Positions 18,573 to 26,365 of a stretch of DNA of 64,000 nucleotides are shown here, one piece after another. Under the pieces are notes generated by a model. The model ran no database searches. It was given only the letters and a program-made list of their open reading frames with translations, and was not told the DNA's origin. The DNA is from Eledone cirrhosa (Eukaryota): assembly GCA_964016885.1 (NCBI GenBank), contig OZ024743.1, positions 266,786,001-266,850,000 of the forward strand, read 5' to 3'. The number at the start of each line of letters is the position of its first letter. Within the stretch, counting starts at the first letter, position 1. Both the position numbers and the translations under genes were made by a program.

Positions 18573-19752
18573 GTGAGGTGTATGATTTTTAATGCAATGA
18601 AATATCTATGATCGTTGGCAAATCACTGATGAGGGACGCATTTTATAACATGTTATCCATGTGCAACCTGCAGTATACTTCTCCCCATTTTTTCACATAT
18701 ATTTACCTAAACTGCGATTCTGTTTTTCTCTCTCTCTTACTGCTCCCTCGTTCTCTCTGTTCTCTTACTTTCTTTCGCCCCCTCTGTCATGTCAGTTAAC
18801 ACTTTCTCTCTACTGACCTCTTCCTCACACTTCCACTCACTCACTCACTGTTTCTCCCCTTCTCACTTCACCCCGTTCGCGACGAAGACAATTTCCTTCT
18901 TTCTTACATTTGGATTCATCTCGAAAGGTCTTTTTTTCTTACGCGCTCATATATTCACCCAGCTTATGCTGACAGAATAACTATGTAGCTTGTGCCCTTC
19001 CTATCTACGGTTAGCTTTCCTCTTTGTTGTTTACTTGTCTCACTCGCTTTACGCGTTTTAATTGTCCTAATAACTTAATTTAGTTATTATTGCACCAACG
19101 TGAGGTATATGATTTTTAATGCAATGAAATATCTATGATCGTTGGCAAATCACTGATGAGGGACGCATTTTATAACATGTTATCCATCTGCAACCTGCAG
19201 TATTCTTCTCCCCATTTTTTCACATATATTTACCTAAACTGCGATTCTGTTTTTCTCTCTCTCTCTCTTACTGCTCCCTCGTTCTCTCTGTTTCTCTTAC
19301 TTTCTTTCGCCCCCTCTGTCATGTCAGTTAACACTTTCTCTCTACTGACCTCTTCCTCACACTTCCACTCACTCACTCACTGTTTCTCCCCTTCTCACTT
19401 CACCCCGTTCGCGACGAAAACAATTTCCTTCTTTCTTACATTTGGATTCATCTCGAAAGGTCTTTTTTCTACGCGCTCATATATTAATCCAGCTTATGCT
19501 GACAGAATAACTATGTAGCTTGTGCCCTTCCTATCTACTGTTAGCTTTCCTCTTTGTTGTTTACTTGTCTCACTCGCTTTACGCGTTTTAATAGTCGTAA
19601 TAACTTAATTTAGTTATTATTGCACCAACGTGAGGTATATGATTTTTAATGCAATGAAATATCTATGATCGTTGGCTAATCACTGATGAGGGACGCATTT
19701 TATAACATGTTATCCATGTGCAACCTGCAGTATTCTTCTCCCCATTTTTTCA
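18573..19752 (+). mobile_element. Non-coding tandem array C1: ~527-530-bp unit x2 plus a ~120-bp terminal repeat, inserted in (TA)n inside a PLE
   Basis: Units start tgaggt at ~18574, 19101 and 19631. Confidence 0.9.
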
Positions 19753-19759
19753 CACACAC

Positions 19760-20786
19760 ATATATATATATATATATATATATATATATATATATATATA
19801 TATATATATATAAATATAAATATATATATATGTATGTATATATATATATATGTACATGTGTGTGTATATGTGTGTATGTATGTATATATTTATATGTGTG
19901 TATGTGTAAATGTGTGTCAACTTTATAATAATTTTTATTTTTATTTTGTTAAGTCGTATATGTTTTTTTTAAATTTTTTTTTTGATGTGGCGGCCTTTTG
20001 CATATATGGTTGTCCATTGTCTTTTATTTTTATTTTTATTTATTTTTTCTTATAATTAATTGTGTGTGTGCGTATGTAGGTGTATGTACATATATCTATA
20101 TATGTGTGTGCGTATGCGTGTATATATGTGTGTATGTATGTGTATATATGTATGTGTATATATGTGTGTATGTATGTGTGTATATGTACGTGTGTATATA
20201 TGTATGATTATATGTGTGTGTATATGTATGTATATATATATATGTGTATATGTATATATATATATATATATGCATGTGTGTGTGTTTGTGTATTTGTGTG
20301 TATGTGTATGTATTGATATGTATGTATATATATATGTATGTGTGTATGTGTATATATGCGTGTGTGTATATATATATGTGTATATATATATATATAAATA
20401 TATATATATATGTGTGTGTATGTATATGTGTGTGTGCATGTGTGTGTGTGTGTGCATGTGTGTTTATCTACTTTTATATTTATTCTGTTTCCTTTCCTTC
20501 TTCCTTTTCCAGCCTCACTTTGATATACATTATATTTTTGTTTTTAAAATCCACTGTCAATAAATACATCAGGATTTTTTTCATTTTGATGACTGAAAGC
20601 AAATTTCTTTTGCTTTCAAGAAACCACTGGTAAATGAAATAATGATCTGAAGCTCTGTAACCTACATAGAGCACTCTTTTTTCCTCAACTCTTCCGACAG
20701 AATTACTTCATTCATATATATATATATGCATATATATATATATACGAAACGGCTTGTGCTCTGCCGTCGAGGTCATACTCTTTCCT
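19760..20786 (+). mobile_element. 3' UTR of the 17340 PLE, ending in an HHR remnant
   Basis: Homologous to the inverted arm at 16960. GAAA-cggc-ttgtgctct-gccg-TC-gaggtcat at ~20746-20776 resembles the 16403 HHR. Confidence 0.65.
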
Positions 20787-20919
20787 ATATATACACACAC
20801 ACACACACACACACACACACACACACACACACACACACACACACACACACATATATATATATATATATATATATATATATATATATATATATATATATAT
20901 ATATATAAATATATATATA

Positions 20920-25135: not shown

Positions 25136-25136
25136 G

Positions 25137-25236
25137 AATAATAAATTTGAAGACTAAAATCCAAAGAGTTTCATGAGATCCTGTTAAGGGTGAAAGCAGC
25201 GATTATTTGCTTAAACTTTAATCTGTTATTTTAATA
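25137..25236. mobile_element. Mini inverted pair of PLE 3' termini with HHR-like motif
   Basis: aataataaatttgaagactaaaatccaaag fused to agtttcatgagatcc...gaaagcagcg...aaact. Confidence 0.75.
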
Positions 25237-25252
25237 TATATATATATATATA

Positions 25253-26365
25253 TGAGATATATGATTTTTAATGCAATGAAATATCTATGATCTTCGGCAA
25301 ATCACTGATGAGGGACGTATTTTATTACATGTTACCATGTGCTACCTGCAGTATTTTTCTCTATATTTTAATACATATATTTACCACTGCGATTCTGTGT
25401 TTTTTTCTCTCTCTCTTACTGTTCCCCCATTCTCTCTGTTTCTCCCCCTCTGTCTTGTCCGTTAACTATTCCTCACACTTTCACTCACTCACTGTTTTTC
25501 TCCCTCTTCTCTTCATTTCATCCTGCACTCACGGACGCTATTTTTTCTCTCTCTGCTCAATGGCCTTCGTTCGTGCTGGACTATTCTTTCCCTAGCGCTC
25601 ATATATTCACCTAGCTTACGCTAACAGAATAATTTTTGAAGCTTGTTTCTCTCCCACGGTATGCTATCTTTTCTGTTGTTCTCCTCTCTCACTCGCTTTA
25701 CGCGTTTTAATTGTCCTAATAACTTATTTTGGTTATTATTGCACCGAAGTGAGATATATTATTTTTAATGCAATGAAATATCTATGATCTTCGGCAAATC
25801 ACTGATGAGGGACGTATTTTATTACATGTTACCATGTGCTACCTGCAGTATTTTTCTCTATATTTTAATACATATATTTACCACTGCGATTCTGTGTTTT
25901 TTTATCTCTCTCTTACTGTTCCCCCATTCTCTCTGTTTCTCCCCCTCTGTCTTGTCCGTTAACTCTTCCTCACACTTTCACTCACTCACTGTTTTTCTCC
26001 CTCTTCTCTTCATTTCATCCTGCACTCACGGACGCTATTTTTTCTCTCTCTGCTCAATGGCCTTCGTTCGTGCTGGACTATTTTTTCCCTAGCGCTCATA
26101 TATTCACCTAGCTTACGCTAACAGAATAATTTTTGAAGCTTGTTTCTCTCCCACGGTATGCTATCTTTTCTGTTGTTCTCCTGTCTCACTCGCTTTACGC
26201 GTTTTAATTGTCCTAATAACTCATTTTGGTTATTATTGCACCGAAGTGAGATATATGATTTTTAATGCAATGAAATATCTATGATCTTCGGCAAATCACT
26301 GATGAGGGACGTATTTTATTACATGTTACCATGTGCTACCTGCAGTATTTTTCTCTATATTTTAA
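25253..26365 (+). mobile_element. Non-coding tandem array C2: 497-bp unit x2 plus a ~115-bp terminal repeat
   Basis: ORF echoes at 25287 and 25784 are 497 bp apart. Homologous to C1 with the same start and end points; flanked by (TA)n. Confidence 0.9.

Follow-up and report, generated by a model that had tools for sequence, protein, structure and literature searches.

The 64,000-nucleotide stretch of contig OZ024743.1 analyzed here (assembly GCA_964016885.1, positions 266,786,001 to 266,850,000, forward strand; hereafter the window) contains a tandemly repeated non-coding element, designated family C, whose repeats carry a candidate self-cleaving RNA. The element is probably a non-autonomous retrozyme dependent on Naiad retrotransposons, and its motif a hammerhead with a split stem II and the block order cleavage site, GAAA, CUGAUGA (type SGC), predicted to cut itself after A19109. 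The structure is well supported by the comparison of copies; catalysis and life cycle are predictions drawn from the letters. An earlier sequence-only reading of the same DNA had suggested that the family may use a permuted or non-canonical self-cleaving RNA, possibly a new ribozyme. The first part agrees with our results, since the motif fits an S-G-C permuted hammerhead with 6-bp stems I and III; it is nevertheless a hammerhead variant and not a separate ribozyme class.

Hammerhead core and block order

A profile hidden Markov model (HMM) and a covariance model built from the family copies retrieve eight motif copies in the 64-kb window, six full and two truncated (Table 1), and no further relative was found there below E 0.06 (HMM) or 0.2 (covariance model). 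Both conserved core words are kept in all eight: CUGAUGA (C3-U4-G5-A6-N7-G8-A9) and GAAA (G12-A13-A14 and A15.1), the latter lying 27 nt 5' of the former throughout, as the sequence-only reading had noted in placing GAAA before CUGAUGA. The cleavage-site triplet is AUA in six copies, GUA in one and AUC in one.

Following Eckert, Friedrich, Weinberg and Weinberg 2023 (PMC10085705), the motif was divided into three blocks, CUGAnGA (C), GAAA (G) and the cleavage site (S), and the six block orders were tested by descriptor. S-G-C is the sole order in which stem I reaches 4 bp or more and stem III 2 bp or more, as seen in seven of the eight copies, the eighth having a stem I mutation; it ranks top in all eight when a mismatch is allowed for that copy. 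The cleavage block is located upstream of GAAA, and the order Site-GAAA-CUGAUGA is a non-circular permutation. When the flanks were shuffled 5000 times, no block S as good as that of the reference copy (array 1, repeat 2) appeared, and the lower bar of the divergent copy (6096-6197) was reached in 42 of 5000 shuffles. Stem III is formed by 19103-19108 and 19129-19134 (6 bp); all six pairs are present in seven copies and four in the divergent one, and one pair is found as G-U, A-U and, in sequencing runs, G-C. Stem I is formed by 19110-19115 and 19147-19152 (6 bp), complete in six copies and with five pairs in two; in the divergent copy it is saved by three double changes. The cut is predicted after A19109 and its equivalents.

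A different fold had been drawn in the sequence-only reading, namely a type II-like order with weak stems. It corresponds to a local type II (G-S-C) hammerhead with GAAA-UAUC-UA, a UGAU/AUCA hairpin as stem I and a cut after A19135, perhaps acting as a dimer. The order and the 4-bp hairpin are present, and 90% of 60 cells pair. Stem III is however limited to 1 bp and is non-palindromic, unlike the minimal type I hammerheads of the window, and in the divergent copy the UH site reads AA. One of the ten pairs is doubly changed, 80 of 500 shuffles score as high, and the majority variant 19165 G>T leaves its stem II without the C-G pair. Covariation of these letters is with partners located upstream; AUCA pairs better with the upstream UGAUUU, and the hairpin is probably not a conserved pairing. 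This fold is considered very improbable.

A similarly small probability is given to another ribozyme class, such as twister, or to a plain satellite with chance motifs. UUUAAUGCA and the downstream UGCAG resemble twister words of the published alignment, but the GC, GAG and CAAG words are absent at the matching places. Searching 18950-19400 against Rfam returned no ribozyme at E<=10, the three matches at this threshold all being weak small nucleolar RNA models. The whole window produced 241 matches at E<=5, of which the best 150 are mostly microsatellite-driven microRNA models and none is relevant. Chance, as a plain satellite would imply, is excluded by the shuffles.

Split stem II and predicted four-way junction

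A contiguous stem II, behind A9 and before G12, amounts to 1 bp at most in family C. This lowers the standing of the motif as a canonical hammerhead, not as one that works like a hammerhead. Each half of stem II pairs with a conserved upstream stretch situated outside the ~120-nt repeat as originally drawn. The 'tgag' proposed as common start does hold for the arrays, which begin within 1 nt of each other (GTGAG at 18573, TGAG at 25253); the conserved module itself begins ~36 nt further 5', at 19064, and this additional part is confined to the internal and terminal repeats. The upstream strands flank a hairpin, P, and pair with the stretch behind CUGAUGA (helix IIb) and with that before GAAA (helix IId); IIb, P, IId and the core are predicted to meet in a four-way junction. 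An additional helix, IIIb, extends stem III.

The resulting 35-pair model was evaluated on the six full copies: 97.1% of 210 cells are paired, with double changes in 9 pairs (12 cells), whereas none of 500 shuffles scores as high and slid partners pair in 32-48%. Changes on both sides are seen at four of the six IIIb pairs, and a U-A pair of IId becomes C-G in the copy around 6186. IIb, P, IIIb and III also emerge from RNAfold and RNAalifold without being imposed. Taken alone, the 120-nt repeat has a folding z-score of ~0 on both strands because the upstream strands are left out. In a split-junction version, where 10.1 and 11.1 are each paired upstream, 96.3% of cells are paired and 8 pairs covary; the window alone is unable to choose between the two versions. 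A descriptor of the full split-stem-II motif detects five of the six full copies and a weak site at 34816, compared with one site in 40 shuffled windows. The match at 34816 (34741-34830) has short, G-U-rich stems and is taken as chance.

A number of other pairings were considered. A contiguous AAUGC/GCAUU stem II was rejected, and a pairing of UGCA with downstream UGCA/CGCA words was dropped in favor of IId, the helix chosen by RNAfold in the divergent copy. A 7-bp hairpin masking CUGAUGA, the minimum free energy structure of one copy, occupies the IIIb strand, and the common variant 19140 C>G disrupts it; it is a possible off-state. SGC hammerheads have a helix that links stems I and II at their free sides, for which a 3-4-bp AUGA/UCAU-like candidate was noticed by eye.

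Variants in public sequencing contigs

Contigs aligned to one unit at >=80% likeness comprise 1711 records in run X1, 64 in X4 and 19 in X6, and family C is multi-copy beyond the window, since contigs of all three runs match the unit. The runs represent three organism labels and two studies, with X1 possibly the window's own source, and their depth is not to be read as copy number. Run X7 contributed three contigs of low-complexity body sequence only, uninformative on the motif. Linkage of variants was inferred from matching depths, and the variants described are among those listed, 20 further rows lying outside. Among them, 19132 T>C turns a G-U pair of stem III into G-C and is compatible with pairing. 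IId is compensated by 19091 T>C and 19123 A>G, at equal depth in X6 (8.29; records 18 plus 19), and IIIb by 19097 A>G and 19143 T>C, which agree with X6 record 17 and X4 record 11. In hairpin P, an A-U pair is replaced by G-C in an X4 loose end, a compensatory change. CUGAUGA, GAAA and the UA site are untouched by the variants listed.

The motif pattern scan gave no match in viral contigs. It gave 32 matches in metagenome contigs, which were attributed to chance, as none has a block S and none is matched by the covariance model.

Arrays, loci and element ends

Family C is present at four loci with unit lengths of 497-538 bp. The two arrays and the two relatives, at 5690 and 36745, recognized by the sequence-only reading were found as described, apart from the end of the second array, given as 26365 and placed here at ~26370. 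Each array is built of two units plus a third repeat of ~120 nt and lies between (TA)n stretches. The units are the same at 516 of 525 aligned bases in array 1 and at 491 of 497 in array 2, and identity reaches 97-99% inside one array versus ~77% between arrays. All four loci end at one shared 3' point against TA-rich repeats, and the 5' truncation points of the two relatives (5690 and 37070) differ from the array starts. A fixed 3' end together with variable 5' ends is the mark of target-primed reverse transcription. Target-site duplications are unreadable, both flanks being (TA)n.

Table 1. Positions of family C features in the window
Feature	Position	Strand	Remarks
Reference motif copy (array 1 repeat 2)	19064-19164	+	full split-stem-II S-G-C motif, six helices intact
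IIb upstream strand, GUCC(U)	19064-19068	+	pairs with (G)GGAC 19160-19164 behind CUGAUGA
Hairpin P	19069-19088	+	third arm of the predicted four-way junction
IId upstream strand, (A)UUGCA	19089-19094	+	pairs with UGCAA(U) 19120-19125 before GAAA
IIIb strand	19095-19100	+	pairs with 19140-19145, prolongs stem III beyond an internal loop; found by RNAalifold
Block S	19103-19115	+	stem III strand 19103-19108, H17 = A19109, stem I strand 19110-19115
Block G	19126-19134	+	G12-A13-A14-A15.1 and stem III strand
Block C	19147-19164	+	stem I strand AAAUCA, CUGAUGA 19153-19159, then (G)GGAC
Fixed 3' end point of element	19215-19232 (~19222-19224 in unit register)	+	(CA)TATAT follows inside units, three subfamilies
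Unit body	19233-19590	+	73-75% pyrimidine, no known RNA family; open frames only 107-132 codons
Array 1	18573-~19752	+	truncated repeat and two units (527, 530 bp), in (TA)n
Truncated motif copy, array 1	18573-18637	+	lacks the upstream strands of IIb, P, IId and IIIb; site after 18582
Motif copy, array 1 repeat 3	19594-19694	+	two broken pairs (IIb, stem I); predicted cut after 19639
Array 2	25253-~26370	+	truncated repeat and two 497-bp units, in (TA)n
Truncated motif copy, array 2	25253-25316	+	site after 25261
Motif copy, array 2 repeat 2	25713-25813	+	one stem I pair broken; predicted cut after 25758
Motif copy, array 2 repeat 3	26210-26310	+	helices all intact; predicted cut after 26255
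Divergent relative	~5690-6269	+	period 538 bp, 5'-truncated inside repeat, 3' end as arrays
Divergent motif copy	6096-6197	+	AUC triplet, three compensatory stem I changes, two stem III mismatches; predicted cut after 6142
5'-truncated relative	~37070-36745	-	one intact motif copy, 3' end as arrays
Motif copy of this relative	36802-36902	-	helices all intact; predicted cut after 36857

The units have a GC content of 0.39 (39%), with a purine share of 0.40-0.60 in the 15 nt before the repeats, and inspection of their open reading frames (ORFs) revealed no reverse transcriptase (RT) or endonuclease frame. Frames of ~100-127 codons opened by a conserved AUGAU loop word run across the pyrimidine-rich body (19135-19518, 25287-25595 and 25784-26092); they are probably a compositional effect, pyrimidine-rich sequence being poor in stops. 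A 12-nt palindrome is located 3' of the ribozyme motif in array 1 (19172-19183), and its 6-nt palindromic core is retained in the other subfamilies, as judged by eye. It may be a dimer signal or chance.

The sequence-only reading had also offered a tandem element of the terminal-repeat retrotransposon in miniature (TRIM) kind, with ~120-bp TG...CA long terminal repeats (LTRs). The layout repeat-body-repeat would suit such an element, as would TG...CA in the repeats of array 1. The terminal repeat of array 2 however lacks the CA end, at two of the four loci the 5' part is truncated and the 3' end fixed, and the repeats are three in tandem. The primer-binding site and polypurine tract proposed as a check were looked for on both strands of six repeats, and neither a conserved TGG behind the repeat nor a purine tract was found. 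The TRIM model is largely refuted already and is regarded as extremely improbable.

Comparison with Naiads

Naiads, described by Craig, Yushenova, Rodriguez and Arkhipova 2021 (PMC8557442), prefer (TA)n targets and form partial head-to-tail tandems. They were reported without canonical hammerheads; some contain core words fitting no descriptor, eight of which are marked 'HHR_half_core'; the mark 'HHR_core' is used as well. Consensus passages of the 3' region, covering part of 54 entries (52/62, 30 and 17 motif places), were compared by eye with family C. Only EuTe stands under its own header; the other entries were named after the header that comes next and by their order in the table, from which the file sometimes departs.

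At least eight consensus entries in this supplement, from five lineages, display the six helices in the family C order with other stem sequences. The layout is seen in Naiad_Amil and Anas (coral), Naiad-2_Movir (box jellyfish), Naiad_Plae (acanthocephalan), Naiad_EuTe (clam shrimp), Naiad_Obim and Ovul (octopus), and, with two broken pairs, Naiad_Aacu. Naiad_Bfor (2-bp stem I) and Naiad_Esco (IId unclear) are partial fits, and the motif was not fitted to Naiad-2_Skow or to the entry before Naiad_EuTe. In these eight entries, 10.1 and 11.1 are unable to pair mutually. In EuTe and Plae both are C and each is paired upstream, leaving no unpaired junction base, and the split-junction reading is favored for this reason. 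The octopus entries have the AAUGAU loop in common with family C, and the distance from the core to the 3' end is alike at ~70-85 nt; this likeness hints at a possible cephalopod host. Targeting of (TA)n, partial head-to-tail tandems and a fixed 3' end are likewise shared. Naiads differ in carrying an ORF with an N-terminal GIY-YIG endonuclease and a C-terminal RT. Family C units have no such frame, and the family could therefore only be a non-autonomous dependant of a Naiad.

Three further entries of the supplement (File S5), two at the Pristionchus position, appear by eye to contain C-S-G hammerheads with an ordinary stem II, which would represent a second non-circular permutation in animal DNA. 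Three nematode Naiad entries resemble long-loop type I hammerheads.

Proposed life cycle and its alternatives

The life cycle that we propose can be briefly summarized as follows. Transcription of the + strand would run through an array, and two successive ribozymes (19109 and 19639, or 25758 and 26255) would cut and free a monomer of 497-538 nt. The truncated first repeat should be inactive because its upstream strands are absent. The monomer would then be circularized, or its ends held by stems III, IIIb, IId and IIb; the type I retrozymes of coral, mussel and axolotl are reported to produce circular RNA (Cervera and de la Pena 2020, PMC7229834). The RT/endonuclease of a Penelope-like element (PLE) would nick (TA)n and begin reverse transcription at an internal point of the RNA, ~115 nt behind the cut. 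This helper is most likely a Naiad, because the 3' untranslated regions of Naiads share the ribozyme layout and target (TA)n. Running round the template, the RT would write from one to 2.2 units. In vitro, the PLE Poseidon starts reverse transcription internally in the RNA, at AT-rich DNA (PMC11167929); no homology between RNA start and target was found in the tested PLE, and priming on the internal CATATAT is for that reason just a guess. Both full arrays (2 of 4 loci) start 8-9 nt 5' of the predicted cut, at the IIIb/III bulge, and a stall of the RT at the G-C-rich IIIb helix is a possibility.

Several observations weigh against the proposed structure and cycle. Stems I and III are weak, at ~-2.3 kcal/mol each as isolated duplexes. 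All helices are intact in just three of the six full copies, and no array has two successive intact copies. Double changes originate mostly from one divergent copy, including all three in stem I; IIb is invariant in the window and thus affords no covariation. Among the sequencing variants, end pairs are lost through 19134 T>A, seen in 51 contigs of X1, and through 19094 A>T, and 19140 C>G is compensated, at 19100, in an unlinked loose end only. Stem I and IId are never found together in any predicted nested fold, and the z-scores of the 113-nt region are merely -1.2 to -2.4. The shuffle counts overstate the case, because the model was derived from the same sequences, with about four independent subfamilies. 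Concerning the cycle, hammerhead cleavage was dispensable for insertion in the sole PLE tested in vitro (PMC11167929). The sequence likeness between family C and Naiads was judged by eye and concerns the ribozyme region, and a Naiad ORF was not identified in the 64-kb window. Cephalopod Naiads are described as long inactive (PMC8557442), which fits poorly with units 97-99% identical if the host is a cephalopod.

These points leave room for two alternatives. It is conceivable, if unlikely, that the fold is right and does not cut unaided, the motif being a slow, protein-assisted or dead ribozyme that mainly marks the RNA for binding by the helper RT. Stems I and III are indeed AU-rich as well as weak, the broken pairs mentioned above affect half of the full copies, and the ends of the element lie away from the predicted cut; the PAc hammerhead has moreover been described as protein-assisted, and as dispensable in vitro (PMC11167929). 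A dead ribozyme would however hardly account for catalytic letters and H17 being kept in 8 of 8 copies while neighboring stems drift with compensation, nor for the core words and UA site left untouched by the listed variants of the sequencing contigs. Quite unlikely as well is a functional ribozyme in another life cycle, with linear tandem transcripts or template jumps instead of circles, or with a helper PLE of the Neptune or Poseidon type. Such a cycle would be compatible with both full arrays ending at 2.2 units and beginning just before the cut, with the missing Naiad ORF, and with PLE-like fragments of the window that, by eye, seem to place the endonuclease behind the RT. It is opposed by the contrast in identity within and between arrays, expected if one monomer is copied repeatedly, and by the layout and core-to-end distance matching Naiad 3' ends. 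A Naiad-dependent retrozyme is preferred as the probable explanation.

Relation to known ribozymes and retrozymes

According to PMC10085705, SGC-order hammerheads cleave in vitro, and the SGC type (HRIMA-1 and variants) was reported from metatranscriptomes and from no genome of a known organism. Family C shares with this type the block order, all core letters, the pseudoknotted stems I and III, and the start of block C (CUGAUGAG or CUGAUGAUG); the short linker behind stem I measures 4 nt in family C and typically 3 nt in SGC. It differs by the lack of a contiguous stem II and of a C before GAAA, by the extra helix IIIb and by its location in animal genomic DNA. Its stem II halves are paired upstream around a hairpin, an arrangement excluded by the published block model, which assumes uninterrupted core blocks. 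The published descriptor demands CGAAA and a contiguous stem II of 2-6 bp closed by G10.1-C11.1, and the corresponding search could for this reason not find family C; no CTGATGA(T)G in the window is preceded by CGAAA at a distance of up to 40 nt.

The metazoan non-LTR retrozymes (PMC7229834) resemble family C in being non-coding tandems with GC below 50% and one ribozyme motif per unit, in lacking a primer-binding site and polypurine tract, and in the presence of PLE-like fragments in the same genome. They contain type I hammerheads in repeats of ~150-450 bp (PMC7229834; Li, Clavereau and Pollet 2026, bioRxiv 10.64898/2026.07.22.740005), in contrast to the S-G-C motif and 497-538-bp units of family C. 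Family C is therefore SGC-like without the stem II of that definition and retrozyme-like without a type I hammerhead, that is, a new variant of both. In the literature searched, which left out most subscription papers, no motif of this kind was found described, either for animal DNA or for Naiads.

Other elements in the window

Canonical or minimal type I (C-G-S) hammerhead repeats are located at 691, 12439(-)/12908/13452, 17016(-), 36574/46936(-), 38726/39530(-)/40184, 40789(-)/40924, 46556 and 50206(-)/52189. These families are unrelated repeats, many with a palindromic stem III and some with a 10.1-11.1 mismatch. They have CUGANGA and GAAA in common with family C, and several also lie against (TA)n; the C-G-S order and local stems set them apart. 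At 12185-13796, units of 544 bp that carry a hammerhead are arranged in tandem, and a truncated copy in inverted orientation lies on their 5' side, a layout known from PLEs. A ~105-nt insert between two (TA)n runs (41097-41202) contains CUGAUGA-UGGAC and, by eye, a possible type I fold without stem III.

Broken PLE-like RT/GIY-YIG frames were recognized by eye at 15100-15324, 17058-18424, 22162-24047(-), 31473-32608, 44525-44965 and 50993-51376(-), array 1 lying directly behind one of them. Searches of Pfam, NCBIfam and PDB left these frames unnamed, the sole match being a sub-threshold RVT_1 at 1643-2320; the frame concerned (1640-2323) is likely a fragment of a long interspersed nuclear element. 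An Atlas search with one PLE-like frame returned eukaryotic clusters labeled HTH_animal, with GIY-YIG/RVT_1 as a minority. Long inverted duplications surround mobile-element sequence at 10005-12024 (99%) and 30166-33865 (94% identical).

Implications

On balance, we lean towards a broader view of these results. The split-stem-II, four-way-junction S-G-C motif would be an active, undescribed architecture outside the six permutations considered possible, and the common ribozyme of many Naiads, from cnidarians to molluscs and crustaceans, with C-S-G in the Naiads of nematodes; family C would be its non-autonomous, circle-forming parasite, of a retrozyme class missed by type I searches, and very many non-circularly permuted ribozymes would have gone uncounted in animals. 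The motif breaks the assumption of uninterrupted blocks and places the SGC type in chromosomal DNA of an animal, where it is multi-copy and, judging from the run labels, shared by at least three organisms. Retrozyme surveys performed with type I descriptors undercount, and the motif offers a natural scaffold in which a catalytic core is capped by a four-way junction. The split-stem-II layout likely explains why the Naiad clade seemed hammerhead-free, unlike other Penelope-like elements.

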